Source: an uncultured Rhodospirillaceae bacterium (GTDB taxonomy: Bacteria > Pseudomonadota > Alphaproteobacteria > UBA8366). From it: a DNA stretch of 64,000 bases. The position numbers and the translations under genes are program-made. The notes under the pieces were generated by a model, which was not told where the DNA came from, did no database searches, and worked only from the letters and a program-made list of their open reading frames with translations. Each line of letters starts with the position of its first letter. The first letter of the stretch is position 1. The stretch spans positions 408,779 through 472,778 of the forward strand of contig CAYPAV010000001.1 of assembly GCA_964408805.1 (NCBI GenBank), given 5' to 3'. Shown piece after piece: positions 10,286 through 30,626 of the stretch.

Positions 10286-10684
10286 CTACCTCATCAAGTT
10301 TTCCATCGCCCCGAAGCTCTTCTCCATCTCGGCGCCGATGTGGAGCATGTAGAGGACGCCGCCCGCGTTCACCAAGAGCCAGACCGCGAGCCAGAGCCAG
10401 TCGGACAGCGGGCGGTCGAGGGCCGGGGTGCCCATGAATTGTTGCCGGTGGAGACGGGAGACGTGAAGCCCCATGCCGATAATGAGGAAATTTCCCCAAG
10501 TGAAGGCGGCGGCGGCGAGGAGAACCGGCTCCGTCAAGGCAACACCGCCGATCTCGTATTTGGCGTAATTGCGAAGATCGGCGAGGTGCCAGAGCAGGCC
10601 CGCGACGACAGCGGCGCCCGGGAGTCCCATCACCATCCCGCGGCGCGCCGACCACCAAAGCCGGGAGGGCCGCTCGCCCGTCAT
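10286..10684 (-). CDS. Hypothetical membrane protein (3-4 TM)
   Basis: Start re-picked at ATG 10684, which overlaps the stop of the upstream epimerase gene (ATGA). Hydrophobic helices MVMGLPGAAVVAGLLW, VLLAAAAFTWGNFLIIGMGL and WLWLAVWLLVNAGGVLYML. Confidence 0.55.
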   Translation of the reverse strand: MTGERPSRLWWSARRGMVMGLPGAAVVAGLLWHLADLRNYAKYEIGGVALTEPVLLAAAAFTWGNFLIIGMGLHVSRLHRQQFMGTPALDRPLSDWLWLAVWLLVNAGGVLYMLHIGAEMEKSFGAMENLMR

Positions 10685-11610
10685 GCGCCGGCGGTGCCGG
10701 GGCTTTGGCTCAAGAACCACTCGATATAAGCCGCGACGCCCCGCTCGATGGTCCATTCGGGGGTCCAGCCGAGGTCGCGTTCGGCGGCCGAGAGGTCGAA
10801 GCGTTCGCGTTTGTCGCGTCGGGGGTTCGAACCGAGTTCAACGAGGGCATTTGGGAAAGATTCGAAGACGAGCTCGGCGATCCGTTGCACGGCGGGCATG
10901 TCCGGACCGGCGACGTTGTAGGCGTATTGCGAGGTCGGCGGCGCGTGAACGGCGGCGGCGGTGGCCGCCACGATGTCCTCGACATAGACGAAGGGCCAGA
11001 ATTCGCCCGCCCCCCAATCGAGCTTGGTCTCGCGCCCGCTCATCGCGTCCTCGATCATGGTGCGGATGGCACAGTCGGTGGTCCGGCGGGGGCCATAGAC
11101 CGAGGAATAGCGAAGGCCGATGGCGTCCAGCCCGTATTCCGCGCGGTAGGCCATCAGCACGAGATCGGAGGCCGCCTTGGTGGCGCCGTAGAGCGTGGTT
11201 GGCCGGAAGGGCGTATCCTCTCGCACGGGCGAATCCGGGGTGACGCCATAGGCCGAGCCGGACGAGCAATAGACGAAGCGGGCGACGCCCGTGCGATAGG
11301 CGGCCTCCGCCAGGTCGAGGGTCGACACGAGATTCGTGCCGGTAATCAGGTGAGGTGCGTCGTTCGCCAGCATCGGCCCCGAGATGCCGCCCGCATGGAC
11401 GATTCTCCCGATCTCGTGTTCCTGGAGGAGGGCCAGCATCGCCGCGTAATCGCCGAAGCCTTCGCCGATATGGGTTACGCCATCGATCGCCGCCGGCGGG
11501 TCCGCGGGATCGAGCCCAACGACCCGGTCGCCCCGCGCCGCCAGCAGCTTGCTCAAGGGATATCCGACAAGGCCGCTCGCACCGGTGATCAGGATGGTTT
11601 CGGAGGGCAT
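10681..11610 (-). CDS. NAD-dependent epimerase/dehydratase family (extended SDR) protein
   Basis: 309 aa with N-terminal Rossmann ILITGASGLVG and catalytic YGATKAASD (YxxxK). Confidence 0.85.
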   Translation of the reverse strand: MPSETILITGASGLVGYPLSKLLAARGDRVVGLDPADPPAAIDGVTHIGEGFGDYAAMLALLQEHEIGRIVHAGGISGPMLANDAPHLITGTNLVSTLDLAEAAYRTGVARFVYCSSGSAYGVTPDSPVREDTPFRPTTLYGATKAASDLVLMAYRAEYGLDAIGLRYSSVYGPRRTTDCAIRTMIEDAMSGRETKLDWGAGEFWPFVYVEDIVAATAAAVHAPPTSQYAYNVAGPDMPAVQRIAELVFESFPNALVELGSNPRRDKRERFDLSAAERDLGWTPEWTIERGVAAYIEWFLSQSPGTAGA

Positions 11611-11710: not shown

Positions 11711-13225
11711 TCACTTCCAAATACTCTTGCCGCCGCCGGGCAAGCCGAGGTCCGACCACATCGCGTCGACCTTCTCGATCACGTCTTCGGTCATGGCGAG
11801 CTTTTCGCCCCAGGCGCGGCTGACCTCGGGCGGCCATTTATTGGTGGCGTCGAGACCGATTTTGGAGCCGAGGCCCGGTTCCGGACTGGCGAAATCGAGG
11901 GTGTCGATCGGCGTGCCCTCGACGAGCGTGATGTCGCGCGCCGGGTCCATCCGGGTCGAGATCGCCCAGACGACGTCGGTCCATTTACGGGCGTCGATGT
12001 CGTCGTCGACCACGATGACCCATTTCGTATAGGTGAACTGCCGGAGATAGGACCAGACCCCCATCATGATCCGCTTGGCGTGCCCCGGATAGGCCTTCTT
12101 TATCGAGACCACCGCGACCCGGTAGGAGCAGGCCTCGGGCGGCAGCCAGAAATCGACGATCTCGGGGAATTGTTGCTGAAAGAGCGGAATGAAGACCTCG
12201 TTCAGCGCCTCGCCGAGGATCGAGGGCTCGTCCGGCGGGCGGCCGGTATAGGTCGAGAGATAGATGGGGTCGCGGCGCATGGTGACGGCGTCGATGGTGA
12301 AAACGGGAAAATCATCGACCGCGTTGAAATAACCGGTGTGGTCGCCATAGGGTCCTTCCCGGCCCGTCTCGGTCAGGGAGACATGGCCCTCGAGCACGAT
12401 CTCGGCCGCCGCCGGCACCTTGAGCGGGATCGTCTTGCAATCGACGAGATCGAGCCGACGTCCCCGCAGCAGCCCGGCGAACTGATATTCCGACAGCGTA
12501 TCCGGCACCGGCGTCACGGCGGCGAGCAAGGTGCCGGGATCGGCGCCGATGACAATGGCGGCCGGCAGCGGTTCCGGTGTCTCATCCTTCCAGCGGGCGA
12601 AATGCTGGGCGCCGCCGCGATGCTTCAGCCAGCGCATCAAGGTCGTGTTCCGCCCCGTCACCTGCATCCGGTAAATACCGAGATTGAAGGCGTCGGCCTT
12701 TCGGCCCTCGGGGTCGGGCCCCCGCGTCACCACGAGCGGCCAGGTGATGAGCGGCGCCGGCTCACCGGGCCAGCAGGTCTGGATCGGCAGTTTGGCGAGG
12801 TCGATCTCGTCGCCCGTCAACACGATTTCCTGGCAGGGAGCGCGGGACACCGATTTCGGCTTCATCGCCATTACGGTCTTCAACAGCGGCAATTGCCCGA
12901 GCGCGTCGCGGATCCCGCCCGGCGGCTCCGGCTGGCGGAGATAGGCCAACGTCTTGCCGACCTCGCGGAGTTGGTCCGGCTCCCGGTCCATGCCCCAGGC
13001 GACCCGCTCCACCGTTCCAAACAGATTGACCAGTACCGACATGCCGTAGGGCGCGCCCGTCTCGGTGACGACGTTCTCGAACAGGATGGCGGGGCCGCCC
13101 TCGGCGATCACCCGGGTCTGGATCTCGGTCATCTCCAGCGCCGGCGAGACCGGATGCGAGACGCGCACCAGCCGGCCCTCGCGGTCCAGCCGCTCGATGA
13201 AGTCGCGCAAGGAGTCGTAGGGCAT
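11711..13225 (-). CDS. ubiD: UbiD family decarboxylase (4-hydroxy-3-polyprenylbenzoate decarboxylase-like)
   Basis: 504 aa with N-terminus [22 protein letters not shown] and overall length and blocks typical of UbiD. No ubiX is adjacent. Confidence 0.88.
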
Positions 13226-13269: not shown

Positions 13270-14715
13270 TCACGGCTCGACCACCGGCTGGGCCAGAATC
13301 CACAGGCTGACCATGGTGTAGGCGACCATCAGCACCAGCATCGGGATCTGGCTGAGCAGGGCCGCCCGTACCGTCCGGTAAACCGAAAAGGCGATCCGGT
13401 GGGCGAGGTAGACGGCGGCGATATGACCCAGAACGACGGCGACCACGGCCGTGTACCAAACCATCTTGGCGCTTACGAGCTCGAGGCGGATCCGGTAGAG
13501 CTTGGTCTCGAAAAGGTCCCAGCCGAAGCCGAACGGATCGGAGGCCAGCGGAATCACCAGCTGGCCCGCGACCAGCAATAGCGACATGTAATGCGCCAGG
13601 TGATAGGCGATCGCGATCGGCACCAGGGTGAGCACGAAACGCCGCGCGGTCTCGCCGATCTCGGGCCCTTCACCGGCGCAGAGTCGCATCAGCGCCGCGA
13701 AACCGAGATAGACGCCGAGAAACAGGACGGGAAAAACTATAAGGCCGATTGTCGTCACCAGGGCCGGGATGTTCAGGCCGGCCTGGTGGAGCGGGAAGAG
13801 GACCGGGTGGAGAGTCTTCGACTCAAGCGCCAGATCCATGATGTCGACCCAGAGCGGCGTCTCCCGGAACCCGTCGAAGGTCACCGTCGCCAGGATCAGC
13901 AGCACGAAGCCCATCAGCGACGGCGATACCGGATCCTGGCTCAATAGCCCAACCGCCGGCGGGCGGAGCTCAAGGCGTCCGCGTCCCGTCTCTTCCCGGC
14001 GGTGGGCGAAGGGGGCAAAGCGCGCCAGAAGACCGAAGACTTGCTGAAACGCCTCGCCATGAGCGAGCCAGGTCTCGCGCCCCCAAACTAACATGCCGGC
14101 CCAGGCGATCACCGCATAGGTCAGGACCAGAAGCGAGAGCGTCCGCGGCGTCTCGCCGCCGAGCCAGACGATTTCCGTCCAAGCGAAGAGGAAGAAGAAC
14201 CCGGCCGCGGGCCAGACGCCGAGGCGGCTTGGCCAGGGCCGTTCGCCCCCGAGGCCGGGAACCAACGCTTCGCCCCATCGGAACAGGGTCGCGATCGGAT
14301 TGACCAGCCGCCAGAGATCGCCGAGAAGCGCCGAGAGATAGGCGAAGCCGATCCACCAGAGCACCCAAACCAGGGTCGGCGCGATGTTCTTGAACTGGTT
14401 CTGGATGCCGATGAAGCCGGCGACGATGACGAGGATAAAGACCGCGACCGCGATCAGCCGGAGCAGCAACAGAAGTGCTGGATGGCTGACAAGGCGACCC
14501 ACGGCGCCGGTGATGAAATCTAACCGGGGATAGGCAAGGCTCTTGTCGCGAACCGAGAGCGCCACCACCGCGAAGGAAACGGCGACGGCGGCCCCCGCCC
14601 CCCATAGGAAGAGCGACAGCGGCAGCGGCAGGTCATAACGCTGGCCGAACGCATGGGCCAGCACCGGGCCGGCCCAAAGGATCGCGATCAGCGCGATGGC
14701 GAGCCGGTATGCCAT
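13270..14715 (-). CDS. Polytopic membrane protein of unknown function with a cleavable signal peptide (predicted mature N-terminus His)
   Basis: 481 aa with ~12 hydrophobic segments. N-terminus MAYRLAIALIAILWAGPVLA|HAFGQRYDLPLPL. Starts 2 nt after the stop of the cupredoxin-like gene. Confidence 0.7.
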   Translation of the reverse strand: MAYRLAIALIAILWAGPVLAHAFGQRYDLPLPLSLFLWGAGAAVAVSFAVVALSVRDKSLAYPRLDFITGAVGRLVSHPALLLLLRLIAVAVFILVIVAGFIGIQNQFKNIAPTLVWVLWWIGFAYLSALLGDLWRLVNPIATLFRWGEALVPGLGGERPWPSRLGVWPAAGFFFLFAWTEIVWLGGETPRTLSLLVLTYAVIAWAGMLVWGRETWLAHGEAFQQVFGLLARFAPFAHRREETGRGRLELRPPAVGLLSQDPVSPSLMGFVLLILATVTFDGFRETPLWVDIMDLALESKTLHPVLFPLHQAGLNIPALVTTIGLIVFPVLFLGVYLGFAALMRLCAGEGPEIGETARRFVLTLVPIAIAYHLAHYMSLLLVAGQLVIPLASDPFGFGWDLFETKLYRIRLELVSAKMVWYTAVVAVVLGHIAAVYLAHRIAFSVYRTVRAALLSQIPMLVLMVAYTMVSLWILAQPVVEP

Positions 14716-14717
14716 GC

Positions 14718-15125
14718 CTAATCCGGATGGACCTCTATATAGAAGAGCGTTCTATGATGACCGTGTCCCTTGCCCTTGCCGTGGCGGGTCACCGGGAAGC
14801 GCCCGACGAGGTCGGCGGCGATGGAGAGCGTCGCGGCGGCGCCCGGGGTCACGTTCAATCGGCGGTCATAACCGTGAAGATGAAGCTCGGCCGATTTGTC
14901 GCTGGTCACGGTGAGCCGGACATCGTCGCCCTTCCGGACCCGAATCGTGCGCTGCCGCCGATCGACCTTGCCGCCCTTGATGGCGATCGTGAAGGATTTC
15001 GTCTCGGCCGCCGAGGAGGCGCGCGCAAGGCAAAGGACCGCGCCGGCAAGCAATCCGCCGCAAAAACCTCGGCGGGCGGCCAACATGCCTCCCGAAGGGA
15101 ATCGAATGTTTTTCACGTAGGTCAT
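14718..15125 (-). CDS. Secreted cupredoxin-like (EfeO N-domain-like) His-rich protein
   Basis: 135 aa with a signal peptide (LLAGAVLCLARASSA|AE), beta-strand-rich body with IRVRKGDDVRLTVTSDKSAELHLHGYD, and C-terminal HGKGKGHGHHRT. The fold call is from pattern memory only. Confidence 0.55.
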   Translation of the reverse strand: MTYVKNIRFPSGGMLAARRGFCGGLLAGAVLCLARASSAAETKSFTIAIKGGKVDRRQRTIRVRKGDDVRLTVTSDKSAELHLHGYDRRLNVTPGAAATLSIAADLVGRFPVTRHGKGKGHGHHRTLFYIEVHPD

Positions 15126-15181
15126 TTCACTATACTTATCATGAAGAAACAGGAATTCACGCGGAACAAGGGAGGGAACCC

Positions 15182-16363
15182 ATGATATTCGGTAGAATTT
15201 TAATCGTTGGCGCGACCGCGGCGGCTTTGCTGCTGCCCGGCCTGGCCGCGGGCGAGATCCTCGCGATGTTCAATTACGAGAGCAAGCCGGAACAAAGTCT
15301 CAAGAAACTGAAAATGTCGGGTACTGGCGCCCGGCGCGAGGGCATCGCGATCGTGGATGTCGATCCCAAATCACCGAACTACGGTAAACTGCTGGTCGAC
15401 ATGCCGCTGCCGAACGACAGCGTCGCGCATCACATTTTCTATAACAAGGACAACTCCAAGGGCTATGTGACGTCGCTCGGCAAAACGCGCATCTACGTCA
15501 TCGACCTGAAACAGAACCCCTTCCGGATCAAGCAGGTCGAGGTTCCGCAATGCAAGGTCGGCGAGGATGTCGTCTTCTCCCAGGACAACAAGACCTGGTA
15601 TCTGACCTGTATGGGCTCGGGCAATGTGGTCTACGGCGATGCCGTGAACGACACGGTCACCGGCGAGATCAAGCTGCCGGTCAAATACCCCCACGGTATC
15701 CATATCCATGAGGGAATCGACCGGATGCTGGTTACCGATACGGTTCGCGCCAGCGACCTCGGGGACGCAGGTGATACCATCGGCGTCATCGAGCTTAGCA
15801 CGGGCAAGTCGCTGGGGACGATCAAGGTCTCGAACAAGCCCTCGCCGGCCGGCGAGGCGCCGGTCGAGGTACTGTTCAAGGCGGGGTCGAATCCGCCGCT
15901 CGCCTATGTCACCAACATGTTCGGCGGACATCTTTGGTATCTTCAATGGAATGCCGCCAAGAAGACATTCGACAGCGGGATGGCGTTCGATTTCAACAAG
16001 ATCAAGGCGGGTGTTCCGCTCGAAATCTATTTCAATCGCAAAGGCGATCGGATGTACATCACCACGGCGAAGCCGGGGAAATTCCACATTTTCGACGTCA
16101 GTGGTGATCTTCGGAAACCGAAGCTGCTGAAGACCATCGAGGCGGACGAGGGCGCGCATCACGTCAGCATCACGCCGGACGAGAAGCTGGCCTGGGTGCA
16201 GAACAGCCTCATGAACTTGCCCGGCATGAGTTCGGGCACGGTGACGGTGATCGATCTCGAGAACCAGAAGCGGATCGGCGAACTCGACACCTTTTCGAAG
16301 CTCGGCTTGAATCTGAACCTGATCGTGCTGCTGCCGAAATGGTATCATCCGATCGGGCATTGA
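15182..16363 (+). CDS. Secreted beta-propeller protein, selenium-binding-protein (SBP56)/methanethiol-oxidase-like
   Basis: 393 aa with Sec signal MIFGRILIVGATAAALLLPGLAA|GE. Blocks IAIVDVDPKSPNYGKLLVDMPLP, TRIYVIDL, HLWYLQW, VPLEIYF and GDRMYITT...FHIFDVSG resemble SELENBP1 blocks recalled from memory. GGGAGGGA SD before the ATG. Confidence 0.55.
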   Translation: MIFGRILIVGATAAALLLPGLAAGEILAMFNYESKPEQSLKKLKMSGTGARREGIAIVDVDPKSPNYGKLLVDMPLPNDSVAHHIFYNKDNSKGYVTSLGKTRIYVIDLKQNPFRIKQVEVPQCKVGEDVVFSQDNKTWYLTCMGSGNVVYGDAVNDTVTGEIKLPVKYPHGIHIHEGIDRMLVTDTVRASDLGDAGDTIGVIELSTGKSLGTIKVSNKPSPAGEAPVEVLFKAGSNPPLAYVTNMFGGHLWYLQWNAAKKTFDSGMAFDFNKIKAGVPLEIYFNRKGDRMYITTAKPGKFHIFDVSGDLRKPKLLKTIEADEGAHHVSITPDEKLAWVQNSLMNLPGMSSGTVTVIDLENQKRIGELDTFSKLGLNLNLIVLLPKWYHPIGH

Positions 16364-16428
16364 TCCGAAATTTTCGGCGTTACACCGGGGCTGGGAATAT
16401 TCCCGGCCCGTCCATTCTTGAGGGCGCC

Positions 16429-17133
16429 ATGACCGATACGGCGGCGAAACTCGCCCGTGCACGGGACTATCCCTACCCCTATCCAGGCCGATCCTATACC
16501 TGGCGGTCGGGCCGGGTGGACGCGTTCGACCGCAATGAAATCCGGGACCGGACGGCTGTTCTGGCGGTCGGCTCGAACCGCGCGCCCGATCAGTTGAGCC
16601 GTAAATATTTCGGCAAGACCGACTCTCCCATTCCGGTCGAGCATGTTCGGCTCCGAGATTTCGACATCGTCTACGCGGCTCATCTGACGCGATACGGCGC
16701 CGTGCCGGCGATGCTGCAGCATGCCCCGGGCACGATCGTCGAGACCGCCGTCACCTGGCTCGACGGCGCACAGCTCGAGATTATGCATTTGACCGAAGGC
16801 GGTTATCACTACGCGGCGATCGAGGATATCGATCTCACATTCGATGACGGTGAAGAGGCCCGCTCGGTGCATCTCTATGTCGGTCGGGAAGGCCATCTGG
16901 TGCACGACGACGCGCCGGTTCCCCTGGCGGAGATCGCGGCCGAGAGACGAATTCAGCCCGCGCGGTCGACCGCCGAGGTCCTGAATCTCGTTCGTCGGCG
17001 CGTGGCGCCCGAGACCGATGGCGAGAGCTTTATCCTGCGGCTGATCGACGACGAAACCTATCGCCGGGGGCATACGGCGAGGATCGCCGCGGACGCCGTG
17101 CCCTTCGGTTATGGCTATGAATTGAAGGCTTAA
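16429..17133 (+). CDS. Hypothetical protein, possibly gamma-glutamylcyclotransferase-like fold
   Basis: Start moved to ATG 16429 (MTDTAAKL), since the upstream part of the ORF overlaps the preceding gene end. VLAVGSNRAPDQLSRKY resembles the YGSNL motif and MHLTEGGYHY resembles the catalytic-Glu block of GGCT-like proteins. The product call is weak. Confidence 0.4.
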   Translation: MTDTAAKLARARDYPYPYPGRSYTWRSGRVDAFDRNEIRDRTAVLAVGSNRAPDQLSRKYFGKTDSPIPVEHVRLRDFDIVYAAHLTRYGAVPAMLQHAPGTIVETAVTWLDGAQLEIMHLTEGGYHYAAIEDIDLTFDDGEEARSVHLYVGREGHLVHDDAPVPLAEIAAERRIQPARSTAEVLNLVRRRVAPETDGESFILRLIDDETYRRGHTARIAADAVPFGYGYELKA

Positions 17134-17795: not shown

Positions 17796-19493
17796 TCAGG
17801 TATCGTCGGGGAGTTCCAACGTCGCCGGGAGCGCGAAAATCTCAATCGTCTCGTCGCGGCCACGAACCTCGGCGTCGTGACGCGGATAGGCGGAAAGATC
17901 GAGACCCGCTTGTCGCGCGGTTTCGGTTGATACGACGAGATCGCAGCCATAGTCCTTGGTTAGCCCCTCGAGGCGCGCGGCCAGGTTCACGTTATCGCCA
18001 ATGGCACTCATATTCGGGCTGGTCGGCGGCCCCATCGAGCCGACGATCGCATCGCCGCCATGGATGCCGACCCCGATTTGAAGCGGGCGGCCGAGTTCGG
18101 CCTCGAAGGCGCGATTCAGGCGTCCCATGCGCCGCTGCATTTCCAGGCCGCCGGCGATGGCATCGCGGCAGCCGGCCGCGAATTCGCCGTCGAGACCGTA
18201 GAGCGCCATCAGCCCATCGCCGTTGAATTGCGCGTAATGGCCGTTCGTCTCCTTCAGCGCGTCGGCCATTTCGGCGAAGAACTGGTTGAGGATGAACACC
18301 ACGTCATAGGGTAGACGTGCCTCGCCCAAGCGGGTCGATCCTCGAAGATCGACGAACAGTATGGCGACCGAGAGCTCCTTTCCCTGCAGGCCGCCCGGCC
18401 GGCGCCCGTCGCGCGCCGTCGCCGTCGGCGGCAATAGCGGCAGGACCCCAGTATTGCGGCGCGGGCATGTCTGGCAGGCCAGCCGAACCTCCGGCTCCGC
18501 ATTGATTCTGGTCAATGCCCGGGCCTCCAATTCCGAAGGGGGTTCGAGGTCGGACAGCCCTGCGACGACCTGGACCCGGCAGGTGGTGCAGCGCCCACGC
18601 CCGCCGCAAACCGAGGCATGGGGCAGGCCGCCGAGGCGGCTCGCCTCCAGGATCGTGGCGCCGACCGGCGCCTCCACCGACTCGCCGCCCGGATAATCGA
18701 CCCGGATCGTCCCCCGCCGATTGCGGAACAATCGGCGGATTTGTCGGCCGACCAGCACCAAGCCGAGCAAGCCGGCGAACCCCCAGAGGGTGGCCGGCAA
18801 AGCGCGAACGAGGCCGGATATCAGTTCCGGCGGCGCTTGATAGAGATCCTTCCGCACGGCATTGAGCCAGGCCGGATCCGTCGCCAGGGACTCGACCGTC
18901 ATGCCGGCGCGCGAGAACCCGATCAAGGCCAGAAGCGGGACGAGCACGCCCATGACATGAAGGATCGGCGCCAGCCGCGCATGCCAGGGTTTCAAACGCA
19001 GCCAGAAATGAAGACCGATCGCGAAATGAGCCCAGACGATCACGATTAGCAGGGACTGCAGGATCGCTTGGCGTTGATCGAGCCAGATGAAGGAGAGGAC
19101 ATAACCGTAGGTCGCGTCGAACCCGATCAGCCAGGGGGCGATGCGGGCACCGATGATGTGCTCTATCAATAGGAAGGGAACCGCCAAGCCGAGCACGAGT
19201 TGGGCCCATTCCCAGGGCTTCAGCCTGAGGTGGCTGCGCCGGTAGAGCGCTTGCAAGCCGAGACAAAGATGGCAGAGGAGCGAGCCGTAGAGCAGAACGG
19301 TCCCCGGCGGGCTTTGCCAGATTGCGCCGTTGACGCGCCGGTAGGCGTCCATGGCTTCGATCGACAGGATGCCGAGCGAATGATTGACCAGATGCGAGAT
19401 GACATAGGCGGCGGCGATGAGTCCGGTGAACAGGCGGATGCCGCGGACGGAAGGCCGATGCCCGCCCAGGATTGCGCCCCAGCCCGGACTCAC
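17796..19493 (-). CDS. Membrane-anchored class III adenylate/guanylate cyclase with an internal plant-type 2Fe-2S ferredoxin domain
   Basis: N-terminal ~5 TM region with His-bearing helices (ISHLVNHS, LCHLCLG, LIEHIIG, VWAHFAIGLHFW). 2Fe-2S motif CGGRGRCTTCRV...RLACQT. Cyclase blocks ILFVDLRGSTRL, FNGDGLMALYG and IGDNVNLAARLE. Start chosen at GTG 19493, which overlaps the ubiA stop. The 169 upstream codons of the 734-aa ORF lie inside ubiA. Confidence 0.8.
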   Translation of the reverse strand: MSPGWGAILGGHRPSVRGIRLFTGLIAAAYVISHLVNHSLGILSIEAMDAYRRVNGAIWQSPPGTVLLYGSLLCHLCLGLQALYRRSHLRLKPWEWAQLVLGLAVPFLLIEHIIGARIAPWLIGFDATYGYVLSFIWLDQRQAILQSLLIVIVWAHFAIGLHFWLRLKPWHARLAPILHVMGVLVPLLALIGFSRAGMTVESLATDPAWLNAVRKDLYQAPPELISGLVRALPATLWGFAGLLGLVLVGRQIRRLFRNRRGTIRVDYPGGESVEAPVGATILEASRLGGLPHASVCGGRGRCTTCRVQVVAGLSDLEPPSELEARALTRINAEPEVRLACQTCPRRNTGVLPLLPPTATARDGRRPGGLQGKELSVAILFVDLRGSTRLGEARLPYDVVFILNQFFAEMADALKETNGHYAQFNGDGLMALYGLDGEFAAGCRDAIAGGLEMQRRMGRLNRAFEAELGRPLQIGVGIHGGDAIVGSMGPPTSPNMSAIGDNVNLAARLEGLTKDYGCDLVVSTETARQAGLDLSAYPRHDAEVRGRDETIEIFALPATLELPDDT

Positions 19494-20440
19494 GACGCCG
19501 CCGCCAGAATCGCGGCCGTGACGAGCAGGCCAAACCACAGATTCGATTTGAACTTTCGGAGACAATCCCCCGGATCTTCCGGATCGAGGGCATGGACCTG
19601 CCAAGCAAGCTGCGCCGCCCCAATGAGAAGACCGACGAGGAACAAAGCCTCGAGACCCGCGAAATATCCCGCCCCGGCCAGCAGCAGCATGGCACCGCCA
19701 TAGAACAGGGCAAGCCATGTCTTCGTGCGCGCCCCGAAAAGAAGGGCCGTCGAGCGGATTCCGACCATTAGGTCGTCCTCCTTGTCCTGGTGGGCATAGA
19801 TCGTGTCGTAGCCGAGGGTCCAGCAGAACCCGGACAGATAAAGCAGGAGCGCCGCCGGTGCCAACCCCTCCATCACCGCCGCCCAGCCAACGAGGGCCCC
19901 CCAATTGAAGGTGAGACCGAGCCAGGCCTGCGGCCAATAGGTCACCCGTTTCATCAAGGGATAGAAGACGACGAGCCCGAGCGAGCCGACAGCGAGCCAA
20001 ATGGTGAAACGGTTGAATTGCAGCAGAACCAGCAAACCGATCAGGGCCAACCCCACCATGAACACCGCCCCGCCGCGGACGGAGACGGTGCCGCTCGCAA
20101 TCGGGCGCTCCCGGGTGCGCTCGACGCGTCGGTCGTAGTCGCGGTCGAGAATATCATTCCATACGCATCCCGCGCTCCGCATGACGAAGGCGCCGATGGC
20201 GAATAGAAGGGCGTAGGCGAGACCGGTACCGAGATTGAGTCCGGCCACGCCGCCGGCCAGCGCCAGACCCCACCAACACGGCAGCAGCAGGAGCCAAGTG
20301 CCGATCGGCCGATCGATCCGGATAAGGGTCAAATAGGGATGCGTCGCCGTCGGCGCGAACCGATAGGCCCAATGGGTACGCGAAATATCGCTGCCCCCTC
20401 CGGCGTCTTTGGTTTCCAAGGTTTCTGCGATCTTGGACAT
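19490..20440 (-). CDS. ubiA: 4-hydroxybenzoate polyprenyltransferase
   Basis: UbiA superfamily motifs RIDRPIGTWLLLLPCWWG and NDILDRDYDRRVERTRERPIASG, with ~8 TM. Start taken at ATG 20440 (MSKIAE). The alternative ATG 20491 would leave only 2 nt of spacer before the divergent rsmE start. Confidence 0.88.
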   Translation of the reverse strand: MSKIAETLETKDAGGGSDISRTHWAYRFAPTATHPYLTLIRIDRPIGTWLLLLPCWWGLALAGGVAGLNLGTGLAYALLFAIGAFVMRSAGCVWNDILDRDYDRRVERTRERPIASGTVSVRGGAVFMVGLALIGLLVLLQFNRFTIWLAVGSLGLVVFYPLMKRVTYWPQAWLGLTFNWGALVGWAAVMEGLAPAALLLYLSGFCWTLGYDTIYAHQDKEDDLMVGIRSTALLFGARTKTWLALFYGGAMLLLAGAGYFAGLEALFLVGLLIGAAQLAWQVHALDPEDPGDCLRKFKSNLWFGLLVTAAILAAAS

Positions 20441-20493
20441 GGGGTAATCTAGCCGGAGTGCGCCTCGGCGCTCAAGCAAAGGAGCGATCACGG

Positions 20494-26380: not shown

Positions 26381-28000
26381 ATGGCTGAAGGAACCGCCGC
26401 TCAGGCGCATGGACACGACGATCACACGCCGTCTGGCTGGCGTCGTTGGCTTTATTCCACGAATCATAAAGACATCGGGACGATGTACATTATCCTCGCC
26501 GCGATCTCCGGCGTGATTGGTGGCGGCATCTCCGTTTACATGCGAATGGAATTAATGGAACCCGGCGTCCAATACATGACGCTGGCGGACGGCACGCCCG
26601 ATGGGCATGCGTGGAACGTTTTCATCACCGCGCACGGTCTGATCATGGTGTTTTTCGTTGTCATGCCGGCCTTGATCGGCGGTTTCGGCAATTGGATCGT
26701 GCCGCTGATGATCGGCGCGCCGGACATGGCGTTCCCGCGCATGAACAACATCAGTTTCTGGCTTCTCGTGCCCTCGTTGCTTCTGCTGGTGGGATCGGCC
26801 GTGATCGGTGGTGGTGCTGGTACCGGTTGGACGGTGTATCCGCCGCTCTCCAATATCGGCGGGTATGGACATGACACGCCGGCGGTCGACATGGCGATTT
26901 TCTCGCTTCATTTGGCGGGTGCGTCTTCGATCCTGGGCGCGGTGAACTTCATCACCACGATCTTCAACATGCGCGCGCCCGGCATGACGCTGCACAAGAC
27001 TCCGCTTTTCGTCTGGTCGATATTGATCACGGCGTTTCTACTGTTGCTGTCCTTGCCGGTGCTCGGCGGCGCCATCACGATGCTGCTGACCGACCGCAAC
27101 TTCGGGACAAGTTTCTTCAAGCCCGAGGGCGGCGGCGAGCCGGTGCTGTTCCAGCACCTGTTCTGGTTCTTCGGCCATCCCGAGGTCTACATCATGATCC
27201 TGCCGGGATTCGGCATCATGAGCCACATCGTGTCGACATTCTCCAAGAAGCCGGTCTTCGGCTATCTCGGCATGGCCTATGCGATGGTCTCGATCGGGTT
27301 CATCGGGTTCATCGTCTGGGCCCACCACATGTACACGGTCGGCATGGACGTCGATGTCCGGGCCTATTTCACCTTGGCGACGATGGTCATCGCGGTGCCG
27401 ACGGGGATCAAGATCTTCAGTTGGATCGCCACCATGTGGGGCGGTTCGATCCGCTTCGATACGCCGATGCTGTGGGCGATGGGGTTCATCTTCATGTTTA
27501 CCGTCGGCGGCGTAACCGGGGTCGTGTTGTCGAATTCCAGCGTCGATTTGGTGTTGCACGACACGTATTACGTGGTGGGGCATTTCCACTACGTGCTGTC
27601 GGTGGCCGCGGTGTTCGCGATCTTCGCGGGCATCTATTATTGGCTTGGCAAGATGACCGGCCGGCAATATCCGGAATGGGCGGGACGCCTGCATTTCTGG
27701 ACGACGTTCATCGGCGTCAACCTGACCTTCTTCCCGCAGCATTTCTCGGGTCTGCAAGGGATGCCGCGCCGCTATATCGATTACGCGGATGCGCTTGCGG
27801 GTTGGAACTATGTTTCGTCGATCGGGTCGTACATTTCATTCATTTCGGCGATGTTCTTCCTGGTGGTCCTGATCCATACGATTTATGCGGGCCGTCGCGT
27901 CGGCGAGAACTACTGGGGCGAAGGCGCCACGACGCTCGAATGGACCGTGTCGTCGCCGCCGCCGTTCCATAGCTACGACGAATTGCCGCAAATCAAGTAG
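26381..28000 (+). CDS. ctaD: Cytochrome c oxidase (aa3) subunit I
   Basis: 539 aa with 12 TM and blocks [30 protein letters not shown] and [13 protein letters not shown]. Confidence 0.97.
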
Positions 28001-28012
28001 CGGCGGGGGGCC

Positions 28013-28951
28013 GTGGGAGGATCTAGCGTGGCTCACACCGCGTATCAGAGCGTTCCGACACCAGGAGAATTAGGTGTCGGCGCCGTGGCGGAAGTCGGCG
28101 ATTACGTCGCCCTCTTGAAGCCCCGGGTTATGTCGCTCGTGGTGTTTACCGGTTTCGCGGGCCTGGTCGTCGCGCCGGGATCGATGCATCCCGTTCTCGG
28201 CGCCATCGCGGTTCTCTGCATTGCCGTGGCCGCGGGTGCCGCGGGCGCGATCAATATGTGGTATGACCGCGATATCGATGCGTTGATGAAGCGTACCCGC
28301 CGCCGTCCGATCCCCATGGGCCGCGTGGCGCCGGAAGATGCGCTCGTCTTCGGCGTCATGATGGCGATCGGTGCCGTGACGCTGATGTGGCTCGCGACGA
28401 ATATCATGGCGGCAGTTCTTTTGGCGACGGCGGTTCTTTTCTATGTCTTCGTCTACACCATCTGGCTGAAGCGCCGAACACCGCAAAACATTGTTATCGG
28501 CGGCGCGGCGGGCGCCTTTCCGCCGGCGATCGGTTGGGCGGCCGCGACGGGTGGAATCGGAATGGAGTCGGTACTCCTCTTCCTGATTATTTTCTTCTGG
28601 ACCCCGCCGCATTTCTGGGCGCTGGCGCTCTTTCGCAAGGACGAATACGCCGCCGCCGGTGTACCGATGCTGCCGGTGGTCCGCGGCCGGCGCGAGACCA
28701 AGCGGCAGATCCTGATCTATACCCTGATCATGGCGCCACTCGGCGTGGCGCCTGTTTTGTTCGGACTGGCGGGCTGGGCCTATGGCGTGGCGGCCGCGGC
28801 ACTGGGCGCCGTTTTTATCGCCGCGGCAGTGACCCTTTGGTTTGATCGGACCGATCGCGCCGCCAAGCGCTTGTTCGGATATTCCATTTTCTATCTTTTC
28901 GCGCTGTTCGCGCTCCTCGTCATTGACGGGGCCTATCCGGGTATGGTTTAG
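28013..28951 (+). CDS. ctaB: Protoheme IX farnesyltransferase (heme O synthase)
   Basis: UbiA-superfamily protein with NMWYDRDIDALMKRTRRRPIP and FFWTPPHFWALA. The start is ambiguous (GTG 28013 or GTG 28028). Confidence 0.9.
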   Translation: MGGSSVAHTAYQSVPTPGELGVGAVAEVGDYVALLKPRVMSLVVFTGFAGLVVAPGSMHPVLGAIAVLCIAVAAGAAGAINMWYDRDIDALMKRTRRRPIPMGRVAPEDALVFGVMMAIGAVTLMWLATNIMAAVLLATAVLFYVFVYTIWLKRRTPQNIVIGGAAGAFPPAIGWAAATGGIGMESVLLFLIIFFWTPPHFWALALFRKDEYAAAGVPMLPVVRGRRETKRQILIYTLIMAPLGVAPVLFGLAGWAYGVAAAALGAVFIAAAVTLWFDRTDRAAKRLFGYSIFYLFALFALLVIDGAYPGMV

Positions 28952-28963
28952 GGCGACGGTGCG

Positions 28964-29125
28964 ATGACGGATATAGCGATGACCAAGCCAAACGACAAAC
29001 GCGGCTTTCCAAGCGAAATGCATCGCCGCCAGCACAAGAAGAACCGGGCATTGCTGCTGATGCTTTTGGTTTGGGTGCTGATCTTCTATGTCGTGTCGAT
29101 TTTGCGTATCGGCGGCGGTTCATGA
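28964..29125 (+). CDS. Small single-TM protein between ctaB and ctaG (CoxF-like); absent from the supplied ORF track
   Basis: ATG 28964 to TGA 29123-29125 (53 aa): MTDIAMTKPNDKRGFPSEMHRRQHKKNRALLLMLLVWVLIFYVVSILRIGGGS. Its stop overlaps the ctaG ATG (ATGA). The position matches the small ORF seen in coxBA-E-F-G-C type clusters. Confidence 0.5.
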   Translation: MTDIAMTKPNDKRGFPSEMHRRQHKKNRALLLMLLVWVLIFYVVSILRIGGGS

Positions 29126-29730
29126 CCGATATCGCGCGGAAAAATAACCGGGTGCTTGCGAGCCTCGCCGCCGTCGTGGTTCTGATGGCGGGGGTCGCCT
29201 ATGCCGCGGTGCCGCTTTACGATCTCTTTTGCCGGGTGACGGGTTACGCCGGAACGACCAATGTCGCCTCCGAGCGAAGTGCCGTTACGACCGATCGGGT
29301 GATGAAAGTACGTTTCGATTCGATGGTGAACGGCATCGACTGGGCATTTCAGCCGGTTCGCCGCCAGATTGAGATCCGGGTCGGCGAGAATGCGTTGGCT
29401 TTCTATCGCGCCACGAACCGATCGAAGCAGCCGGTTACCGGCACCGCCGTCTTCAATGTAACCCCGTTGAAGGTCGGTGCCTATTTCAGCAAGACCGAAT
29501 GCTTTTGTTTCACGGAACAGCGTCTCGCGCCGGGCGAGACGATGGATATGCCGGTCGCATTTTTCGTCGATCCGGCGATCGAACAGGACCCCAACCTTGC
29601 CGATGTCAAGACGATCACGCTTTCCTACACGTTCTATCCCGCATCCGAAGGTGACTCGGCGCGGGATCAGGAACGGAAGGTCAGCGCGATCTTGCCTCCG
29701 GCCGAAGGCGCGGCGGGGTTGGTTCGGTAA
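29122..29730 (+). CDS. ctaG: Cytochrome c oxidase assembly protein CtaG/Cox11
   Basis: Start at ATG 29122 (MTDIARKNNRVL), N-terminal TM anchor, VPLYDLFCRVTGYAGT and the copper-binding TECFCFTEQ motif. Confidence 0.9.
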   Translation: MTDIARKNNRVLASLAAVVVLMAGVAYAAVPLYDLFCRVTGYAGTTNVASERSAVTTDRVMKVRFDSMVNGIDWAFQPVRRQIEIRVGENALAFYRATNRSKQPVTGTAVFNVTPLKVGAYFSKTECFCFTEQRLAPGETMDMPVAFFVDPAIEQDPNLADVKTITLSYTFYPASEGDSARDQERKVSAILPPAEGAAGLVR

Positions 29731-29768
29731 ATTGAACGACGTCAAAAGGCGACGAGCGAGGAATTGAG

Positions 29769-30626
29769 ATGAGCGCCACCACGGAAGAACACCACGGTCA
29801 CAAGCACCCTTACCACCTTGTGGACCCGAGCCCCTGGCCGGCGCTCGGCGCGTTGGGCGCATTTCTGCTGACTTTCGGCCTGATCATGTTCATGCATCCC
29901 GGAATTTTGGGCGAGGGCTTGGAGGAAGGGATCGAATCCCTCGGTATCTTGGCCTTCTTGCCCGGGATTATCGTTATTCTGGGCACGATGGCGGTCTGGT
30001 GGCGCGACGTCATCCAGGAGGCGACCTTCGACGGCTATCATACGCCGGTCGTCCAGCTTGGCATGCGCTACGGCATGGCGCTCTTCATCTGTTCGGAGGT
30101 CATGTTCTTCGTCGCCTTCTTCTGGGCTTTCTTCGAGTCGAGCCTGTTCCCGAAGGAGTTCCCTTACGATCTCGCCGGCGGCGTCTGGCCGCCGAAGGGG
30201 ATCGAGACCTTCGATCCCTTCGACGTACCTTTCATGAACACGGTAATCCTGCTGCTGTCGGGTGTTACGGTGACTTGGGCGCATCACGCGCTACGCGAAG
30301 GCAAGCAGGCCCAGACGGTCCGCGGTCTCGCCTATACCATTGGCCTTGGCATTCTGTTTACCGCCCTTCAGGCGTACGAATACATCCATGCCGGTTTTGG
30401 TTTCAAGGACGGGATCTATGGGTCTACCTTCTATATGGCGACGGGTTTCCATGGCGCCCACGTCATAATCGGCACGACCTTCCTGATCGTCTGCTTCTTC
30501 CGGGCAAAGAAGGGTCATTTCAAGCCTGAACATCATTTCGGGTTCGAGGCCGCCGCCTGGTATTGGCATTTCGTCGACGTGGTTTGGCTGTTCCTGTTTA
30601 GCTGTGTCTATTGGTGGGGTGGCTGA
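29769..30626 (+). CDS. ctaE: Cytochrome c oxidase (aa3) subunit III
   Basis: 285 aa with 7 [14 protein letters not shown] at the N-terminus, plus [11 protein letters not shown] and [14 protein letters not shown]. Confidence 0.95.

Follow-up and report, generated by a model that had tools for sequence, protein, structure and literature searches.

A candidate copper-handling pair of a cupredoxin-like protein and an unannotated membrane protein, linked to a secreted propeller distantly related to SBP56

To our knowledge, copper import and delivery in bacteria are poorly understood, and few importers are known (CcoA, YcnJ/CopD). In the CuB site of PmoB, an N-terminal histidine and an HxH motif on a cupredoxin are brought together in one chain. 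In YcnJ of Bacillus subtilis, an extracellular CopC domain with a histidine brace is joined to a CopD domain, which lies in the membrane and has a putative copper site, and to a YtkA domain; Cu(II) is exchanged between YcnJ and YcnI (PMC12154828, PMC13344008). The YtkA domain of YcnJ has a part in oxidase assembly (PMC13344008). The SBP56 enzymes depend on copper and need their HH motif for activity, and the copper-dependent activity of SELENBP1 needs XHHX (H73/H74), HXXH (H137/H140), D189 and E252 (PMC10362175). Here, we have analysed a window of 64,000 nucleotides from an uncultured Rhodospirillaceae bacterium (contig CAYPAV010000001.1, positions 408,779 to 472,778), in which a cupredoxin-like protein and a polytopic membrane protein (hereafter, the pair) are encoded divergently from a secreted propeller. 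The open reading frame (ORF) list bears out the three genes, the short AT-rich gap between them and the 2-nt spacer from the cupredoxin stop to the ATG of the membrane protein, all of which had been proposed from the letters of the DNA (the original prediction). Lengths are in amino acids (aa).

13270..14715, minus strand: gene of the membrane protein, 481 aa (ORF list)
14718..15125, minus strand: gene of the cupredoxin-like protein, 135 aa (ORF list)
15126..15181, no strand: divergent intergenic gap, 56 bp, 44.6% GC
15182..16363, plus strand: gene of the propeller, 393 aa (ORF list)

We propose, with a probability of about 45%, that the cupredoxin and the membrane protein are a copper-handling module at the cell membrane and that the propeller is its dependent client. 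On the outer side of the cytoplasmic membrane, the module would bind copper, which it would then move or relay, either for uptake or for delivery to extracytoplasmic copper proteins. An extracytoplasmic N-terminal His of the membrane protein, acidic residues at the outer ends of its helices and a His cluster in mid-membrane could form the metal path. The propeller would be a secreted metalloprotein with a ring of His, Glu and Asp around its central tunnel, and may depend on the module, probably for metal loading. What we show is how the genes are linked, which residues are conserved, which folds are predicted and that no family annotation applies; copper as the metal, transport or relay as the function and the client relationship are what we infer. 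The pair, not the propeller, is the main discovery, and neither it nor the propeller family was described in any paper that our literature searches brought up.

Scans from both sides support an evolutionary link among the three genes. In the genome scan with the membrane family, the best 80 of 561 relatives' loci were analysed; they come from Alpha-, Beta- and Gammaproteobacteria, Nitrospinota, Chloroflexota, Methylomirabilota, Gemmatimonadota and Deinococcota, with cultured Bradyrhizobium, Janthinobacterium and Variovorax among them. Of the 75 loci with room for a cupredoxin gene, at least 61 have it immediately before the membrane gene and in the same orientation. The propeller was found in 19 of the 80 loci; among the 65 with at least 2.5 kb of flank, 12 have the propeller and 44 have the cupredoxin but no propeller. 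The reverse scan, a metagenome search with the propeller family, gave 80 loci, 55 of them with at least 1 kb upstream. The membrane gene was divergently upstream in 49 of these 55, and the cupredoxin was present in 38 of the 49. Hence a propeller gene is rarely found without the membrane gene, whereas most loci with the pair lack a propeller, which makes the pair a general module and not a dedicated partner of the propeller. The original prediction that the pair serves the propeller in metal delivery or electron transfer is thus upheld as far as the linkage goes (49/55), but the pair is not dedicated to it (44/65 without the propeller), and electron transfer is unlikely for a cupredoxin lacking Cys. 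Pairs without an SBP56-like neighbour do exist, but none has a known unrelated function, and nothing found here overturns that prediction outright; its observations were largely right and its interpretation partly right.

Clustering of all neighbouring ORFs gave no other widely conserved partner of the pair. The propeller's place is taken by secreted proteins that vary with the lineage: an LVIVD-repeat propeller, a protein of 393 aa in Bradyrhizobium-type loci and one resembling YtkA in Dehalococcoidia. The LVIVD-repeat propeller, a secreted protein of ~600 aa that is often in several copies, stands in for the SBP56-like propeller beside the pair at Casimicrobiaceae-, Burkholderiales- and Gemmatimonadaceae-type loci (L029, L037, L051, L061, L063, L065, L069, L080), which suggests that the pair serves different propeller clients.

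By sequence comparison, the membrane-protein family spans bacteria and archaea and has no relative in Pfam, NCBIfam or PDB. The protein itself gave no sequence match in any of the three, and no Pfam match recurred among 95 family members even at E <= 1, neither CopD (PF05425) nor FTR1 (PF03239) included. A Foldseek search of PDB with its model gave no credible match (best E 0.17, template-modelling score below 0.2). The family is large, with 6,695 clusters (50% identity) at E <= 1e-3 and 1,697 at E <= 1e-30 in an exhaustive profile search. The features of the protein that matter for the argument, including those in its transmembrane (TM) helices, are as follows.

14656..14715, minus strand: predicted signal peptide, aa 1-20, ending in VLA
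14620..14655, minus strand: His21 and the HAFGxRYDLPxP peptide before TM1; the His21 codon is 14653..14655, predicted mature residue 1
13399..13602, minus strand: two C-terminal TM helices with His372/His375 (AYHLAHY) and His431/His439 (GHxxAVYLAH)

In the AlphaFold (AF2) model (predicted local distance difference test, pLDDT, 90.3), a short N-terminal helix is followed by ~10 long TM helices, so the ~12 TM helices counted originally are better described as a signal peptide plus ~10. The short helix (residues 2-13) corresponds to the h-region of the signal, and residues 17-27 have low pLDDT or are disordered. The junction between VLA and HAFGQRYDLP is of the signal-peptidase type and well conserved, as had been anticipated: position -3 is Ala in 83 of 95 homologs, position -1 is A, G or S in all 95, and position +1 is His in all 95. 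The membrane protein is thus predicted, on sequence grounds, to mature with His21 as residue 1. The topology, N-out and C-out, is predicted from the positive-inside rule and from C-terminal fusions, and the conserved SDPFGxGW loop is predicted to face outward. Invariant residues in the TM region include E181, D281, H372, H375, Q385, H431 and H439.

An exposed N-terminal His was originally compared with the histidine-brace copper sites. Residue 1 is indeed predicted to be His, but it sits on a 12-residue peptide directly before TM1 and not on a beta-sandwich. Any second brace ligand would have to come from elsewhere in the protein or from the cupredoxin. Four actinobacterial homologs keep AHG.G..DLP.P with only 4-10 residues before it and no signal peptide, and the homolog of Haloferax volcanii has no N-terminal His. 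H375, H431 and H439 persist in all actinobacterial and archaeal homologs examined. A strict histidine brace as a family-wide requirement is not supported by these sequences.

Homologs of the membrane protein carry heterogeneous C-terminal extensions: a beta-rich domain of 104 aa with an IHYHEG motif, a ~400-aa domain, TPR repeats and a YtkA-like domain. The 104-aa domain is not a substitute for the cupredoxin because it co-occurs with a separate cupredoxin, and the ~400-aa domain belongs to no family that we could recognise, its SBP_bac_5 motif being non-significant. Carriers of such fusions are L028, L030, L032 and L060; P0198 and P0217; and P0242, P0256, P0247 and P0325. A CxxC...CxxC insert of ~25-40 aa is present in a predicted cytoplasmic loop of 26 of 107 homologs. 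It resembles a zinc-ribbon or metal-binding motif and is carried, for example, by L086 (3274..4899), P0145, P0169, P0212 and P0226.

The cupredoxin-like protein is a secreted protein of 135 aa, with a possible alternative start at Met14 (position 15086). Its assignment to the cupredoxins holds at the superfamily level. Pfam Cupredoxin_1 (PF13473), the EfeO/FtrB type, scored 24.7 bits against a cut-off of 27. A family profile of 40 members matched copper nitrite reductase (E 5.8e-6), CuA domains (1.6e-5) and two-domain laccases (~2e-5 to 1e-3), with nitrosocyanin also among the matches; the E-values of the first three were also summarised as 2e-6 to 1e-4. The conserved residues are D76, H82-L-H84-G-Y-D87, GRFP and H115; there is no conserved Cys in the family, and none in the mature part of the query protein. 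The HLHG motif falls inside the region aligned to laccases and nitrite reductase, where the HxHG copper-ligand motif of those proteins is located, and H115 falls in the loop that bears Cys in CuA domains. The HGKGKGHGHH stretch, first taken for a tail, is an internal loop before the last strand, and only H115 of this region is conserved. Judging from these alignments, the small protein is a cupredoxin-superfamily member and not a blue-copper or CuA protein. Its copper site, if any, would be an all-His, type-2-like site (HxH plus one His), possibly with Asp. Since the family lacks a Cys ligand, an electron-shuttle role is unlikely. We also considered twin-arginine export of the query (MLAARRGF) and dropped it: a crude test for RR plus a hydrophobic stretch was positive in 14 of 55 cupredoxins versus 13 of 95 membrane proteins used as control.

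A small domain with a GEGHAH motif was seen among periplasmic partners. It is fused to PCuAC in Sulfitobacter (GEGHAHIYLNG; L172, 4877..5635, minus strand), and a similar motif, GEGHAHVYVDG, is fused to a cupredoxin in at least one Dehalococcoidia locus (L047, 9049..9846, plus strand), with L072 (9163..9912, plus strand) also listed. Pfam does not recognise this domain, which by its motif appears to link partners of the PCuAC and cupredoxin types.

Copper is the metal to which several independent genomic contexts of the membrane family point. In Sulfitobacter, the divergent neighbour of the membrane homolog has a PCu(A)C domain (31.8 bits, cut-off 29.4). On pHV4 of H. volcanii the gene order is a P19-like protein, a small protein, the membrane homolog and a P1B-ATPase that has two HMA domains. 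On plasmids of Mycobacterium dioxanotrophicus and Mycobacterium chubuense, SigC, a cupredoxin-like lipoprotein (HVHVHGYD) and the membrane homolog lie beside genes of a copper membrane monooxygenase (CuMMO). A published review discusses SigC at these plasmid regions only in terms of possible regulation of the monooxygenase. In Mycobacterium tuberculosis, SigC has been reported to prevent copper starvation (PMC7924339). The mycobacterial hydrocarbon-monooxygenase regions are at L081 4338..7404 and L170 5440..8062, and at the M. dioxanotrophicus locus a zf-HC2 anti-sigma factor and a lipoprotein of 353 aa, rich in His, are encoded as well. The Haladaptatus homolog comes before a DyP-like protein and a P19-type Fe2+ transport protein. 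A 10-kb neighbourhood includes cytochrome oxidase genes at 6 of the 80 genome loci and a P1B-ATPase at 4. A YtkA-like C-terminal domain is fused to one membrane homolog (P0294; 25.7 bits, cut-off 25.9), and a neighbour at Dehalococcoidia membrane loci gave a weak YtkA-like match. At a propeller locus that lacks the pair (L109), a CusF gene lies downstream of the propeller (68.7 bits). An exported MsrA is encoded directly upstream of the propeller in two related pair-less loci (L109 5173..7832 and L130 941..2748). MsrA and CusF beside the propeller are anecdotal, CusF being found in L109 only. Taken together, the copper associations (PCuAC, P19-like, P1B-ATPase, CuMMO with SigC, cytochrome oxidase, YtkA-like and CusF) concern a minority of loci.

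The propeller has a Sec-type signal peptide (aa 1-24), as originally predicted, with A, G or S at position -1 in 94 of 94 homologs and Glu at +1 in 89. Its AlphaFold (AF2) model, built on these 94 homologs, has a pLDDT of 90.2 and 28 strands that form seven four-stranded blades. In a Foldseek search, the Sulfolobus SBP56 structure 2ece had the best template-modelling score (TMq 0.72) and was second by E-value (1e-13); generic YVTN/lactonase propellers scored 0.61-0.65, and AztD and thiocyanate dehydrogenase lower. An SBP56 profile search had been suggested at the outset; Pfam SBP56 (PF05694) gave 34.0 bits, just at its cut-off of 34, and the match spans only model positions 34-142 of 453. A weak SBP56 match was found in 78 of the 94 homologs and is the most recurrent weak Pfam match of the family. 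Residues 45-121 alone align to the 2ece sequence, and in the family profile only positions 49-89 do so. Of the sequence blocks quoted as SBP56-like in the original prediction, VDVDPKSP.Y and.RIYVID align, as does the HH pair, but the others are unsupported. The propeller is indeed ~80 aa shorter than SELENBP1. Since the MtoX equivalog NF052453 scored only 51.3 bits (cut-off 650; residues 43-119 only), HXXH is not conserved and the protein is 393 aa long, it is not an MtoX orthologue. The YncE family NF052280 gave 18.5 bits against a cut-off of 400.

By aligning the blades to the YVTN repeat pattern, we found the residues that start the inner strands, namely HH 83/84, ED 128/129, H171, E229, E281, HH 326/327 and N379, all invariant in the 94 homologs; their strand positions suggest that they face the central tunnel. 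H83/H84 corresponds to the XHHX motif, and the HH of 2ece aligns to it. HxxH is not a conserved motif of the family: although the query reads H171-x-x-H174, 84 of 94 homologs have Ala at residue 174, and the inner strand of blade 2 reads V-G-E-D. C143 is invariant and C124 is found in 93 of the 94, H302 is conserved in 92, and the last residue (H393 in the query) is His in 93. The family is large (3,529 matches among the candidates scored; members of 386-411 aa), and the top 120 database matches, which include Alpha- and Gammaproteobacteria, are 58-70% identical. Public names of the homologs, either unnamed or "YncE family", are uninformative. From its alignments, the propeller is best described as a secreted, metalloprotein-like, distant and shortened relative of SBP56, not orthologous to MtoX or SELENBP1. 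The original label, an SBP56/methanethiol-oxidase-like propeller, thus stands for the first half but not for the second.

Several points weigh against a copper module with a dependent propeller. Copper-related neighbours are missing entirely from most of the 80 genome loci, and their enrichment was gauged only by comparison with a rough expectation. The plasmid regions of the two mycobacteria are related, so that they do not count as independent observations. The P19/DyP contexts of haloarchaea fit iron uptake as well as copper. Of the 49 propeller-linked loci, 11 lack the cupredoxin, for which their gap leaves no room. Actinobacterial homologs do not have the N-terminal His at residue 1, and the H. 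volcanii homolog has none. The clustering of residues along the TM metal path is deduced from helix positions, and that of the putative propeller ligands from strand positions and not from measured distances. Finally, a box for a copper regulator was not found in the divergent gap. The gap has 44.6% GC versus 63.7% for the whole window, and neither it nor the 76 orthologous gaps that we extracted contain an evident Fur, Zur, CueR or CsoR-like box. A -10-like TATA(A/G)T element recurs among the orthologous gaps, many of which share a TATA(A/C)T-like element with the gap of the query, and a sigma-70 scan gave no match.

In the boldest form of the copper reading, the membrane protein would represent an undescribed superfamily of copper permeases or insertases, would share with the cupredoxin an intermolecular copper site of its membrane-tethered N-terminal His and HxH (a split PmoB CuB site) and would metalate a new class of secreted multi-His propeller enzymes, akin to MtoX and yet distinct from it. 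We consider this full version doubtful.

Among the alternatives, the one that survives best, although we find it unlikely, is that the three genes serve metal uptake, with the propeller as a non-enzymatic periplasmic metallochaperone or scavenger like AztD that feeds the permease and the cupredoxin as a second chaperone; the metal may then be copper, zinc or another cation. The one-way dependence of the propeller on the membrane protein is what would be expected of an accessory chaperone, and its central His-rich site and C-terminal His would suit metal capture. AztD (zinc) propellers are among the fold matches (score ~0.52), but the match is weaker than to SBP56 or to lactonases. Moreover, ~10 invariant polar residues and two invariant Cys, with 58-70% identity in the top 120 matches, look more like an active site.

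Less likely again is that the pair takes up iron in an oxidase-dependent manner like EfeUOB, FetMP or FtrABCD, with the cupredoxin in the role of FtrB or the EfeO Cup domain and the membrane protein replacing the FTR1-type permease. The haloarchaeal neighbours favour this view (DyP-like and P19-type proteins after the Haladaptatus homolog, a P19-like protein in H. volcanii), and so does the fact that the best Pfam match of the cupredoxin is Cupredoxin_1. P19 proteins, however, bind copper themselves, and the associations with PCuAC, P1B-ATPase, CuMMO, CusF and YtkA are copper-specific. The 95 members show no REXXE-type motif and no FTR1 signal in Pfam, nor is a Fur-type box evident in the divergent gap.

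We regard as improbable, too, a redox chain in which the membrane protein exchanges electrons with the quinone pool through cofactors bound by TM His residues and the cupredoxin shuttles them to a propeller dehydrogenase or reductase. It would account for the four conserved TM His on two helices; cupredoxins are classic electron carriers, and related propeller enzymes such as NosZ need electron partners, with weak matches to NosZ models obtained here. But a cupredoxin without Cys has no type-1 or CuA site, and the pair is usually found without a nearby redox enzyme. The His spacings (i,i+3 and i,i+8) misfit two stacked b hemes, and for this reason a di-heme cytochrome b reading of the membrane protein was rejected. 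The NosZ scores are negligible: the lactonase-type NosZ model NF052460 gave the propeller 21.2 bits (cut-off 700), and TIGR04246 gave the cupredoxin 17.5 bits (cut-off 625). A split NosZ, with the propeller as CuZ and the cupredoxin as CuA domain, was rejected on these tiny scores and the lack of Cys.

In the least probable reading of all, the propeller would be a true methanethiol oxidase of compact size, and the pair its dedicated copper maturation system replacing SCO1/MauG. SBP56 is its most consistent family match (78/94 members), 2ece is its best structural match and shares the HH motif, and SCO1/MauG genes are absent nearby, but the MtoX model gave 51 bits against 650 with similarity confined to the first blade, HXXH is not conserved (Ala at residue 174 in 84/94) and the pair is not specific to the propeller.

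The genes within ~5 kb of the trio encode UbiD, an epimerase, DUF2062, UbiA, an adenylate cyclase and an RsmE-like methyltransferase; as originally noted, there is no SCO1- or MauG-type gene in this range. ubiD and ubiA (ubiquinone biosynthesis) flank the trio at 11711..13225 and 19490..20491, both on the minus strand. Since ubiD is adjacent also in the nearest relatives (L001, L007), the proximity probably reflects local synteny and not functional linkage. The propeller gene is less GC-rich than its neighbours, as had been remarked (0.573 versus 0.635-0.655), but its GC content at third codon positions (0.789) lies inside their range (0.765-0.865). Because of this resemblance, the low GC is mostly a matter of amino-acid composition; it is weak evidence for horizontal transfer, which we rejected as a reading. 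A 264-aa ORF (16339..17133, plus strand) overlaps the 3' end of the propeller gene and likely starts at Met31 (position 16429); it has no Pfam or NCBIfam match and was not kept beside the propeller in any of 160 related loci. At 17796..20000 (minus strand) lies a fusion gene for a protein of 734 aa, whose N-terminal part is a polytopic membrane region and which has domains of 2Fe-2S ferredoxin (PF00111) and adenylate/guanylate cyclase (PF00211), an unusual redox-sensing cyclase architecture. A hydrophobic 156-aa ORF without a family match (10286..10756, minus strand) adjoins the NAD-dependent epimerase gene. A cytochrome c oxidase operon (26399..30617, plus strand) is found ~10 kb downstream of the trio, with Cox1 at 26399..27970 and Cox3 at ~30240..30617 (by tblastn only).

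If the membrane family does traffic copper, a large, broad and unannotated family would fill part of the gap in copper import and delivery, and thousands of genes of soil and marine genomes that are now labelled "hypothetical" or "YncE family" would become easier to approach. The propeller would be a testable family of client enzymes, with a ring that differs from those of methanethiol oxidase, thiocyanate dehydrogenase and NosZ. Genetic tests are feasible because cultured bacteria carry these genes: Janthinobacterium (sp. S3T4, locus L055) has the trio, Variovorax and Bradyrhizobium only the pair.

How does this locus compare with the systems described so far? The propeller resembles SBP56, SELENBP1 and MtoX in its seven blades, its best template-modelling score to 2ece, the block in the first blade, the XHHX motif of the inner strand, and the acidic and His residues predicted to line the central cavity; bacterial members are also secreted. 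It differs in being ~80 aa shorter, in its MtoX score (51 versus 650 bits) and in having G-E-D on blade 2 in place of HXXH. Also distinctive are another HH pair, on blade 6, two Cys that are invariant and an invariant His at the C-terminus. The genes of the cupredoxin and the membrane protein lie beside it, where bacterial mtoX clusters have SCO1/MauG.

The cupredoxin shares with multicopper oxidases, nitrite reductases and CuA domains a significant profile homology, the HLHG region and the position of H115 in the C-terminal ligand loop. Unlike them, it is a single small domain without a Cys/Met ligand set, and its partner is a membrane protein and not further cupredoxin domains. EfeUOB, FtrABCD and FetMP likewise combine a cupredoxin-type periplasmic part with a polytopic membrane protein, and the haloarchaeal homologs of the pair have P19- or DyP-like neighbours. 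The membrane protein of the pair is not FTR1 and has no REXXE, and most of the other associated genes are copper-specific.

By analogy, the nearest functional counterpart of the pair would be YcnI/YcnJ, built from unrelated sequence. Both combine an extracytoplasmic copper-type partner (putative in the pair) with a polytopic membrane protein, and in each the N-terminal His of the membrane protein is extracytoplasmic (by prediction in the pair), with a putative metal site conserved among the TM helices. YtkA-like and occasionally PCuAC parts are fused or adjacent in some members of the pair, and both systems are linked to copper enzymes or oxidases. Sequence signals of CopC, CopD and DUF1775 are absent from the pair, however; the N-terminal His of YcnJ is on the CopC beta-sandwich and that of our membrane protein on a 12-residue peptide; and the partner is a cupredoxin with a putative HxH+H site. 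The pair is widespread in Gram-negatives and Chloroflexota, with distant homologs in Actinobacteria and haloarchaea.

With the brace proteins PmoB, CopC and LPMO, the pair shares an N-terminal His that is predicted to be exposed by signal cleavage, an HxH on a cupredoxin fold and, for some homologs, a place beside mycobacterial CuMMO operons. In actinobacterial homologs, unlike in the brace proteins, there is no signal peptide and the His is internal. The main difference from PmoB is that the His and the HxH are split over two separate proteins, which suggests a shared, intermolecular metal site formed by the His of the membrane protein and the HxH of the cupredoxin.

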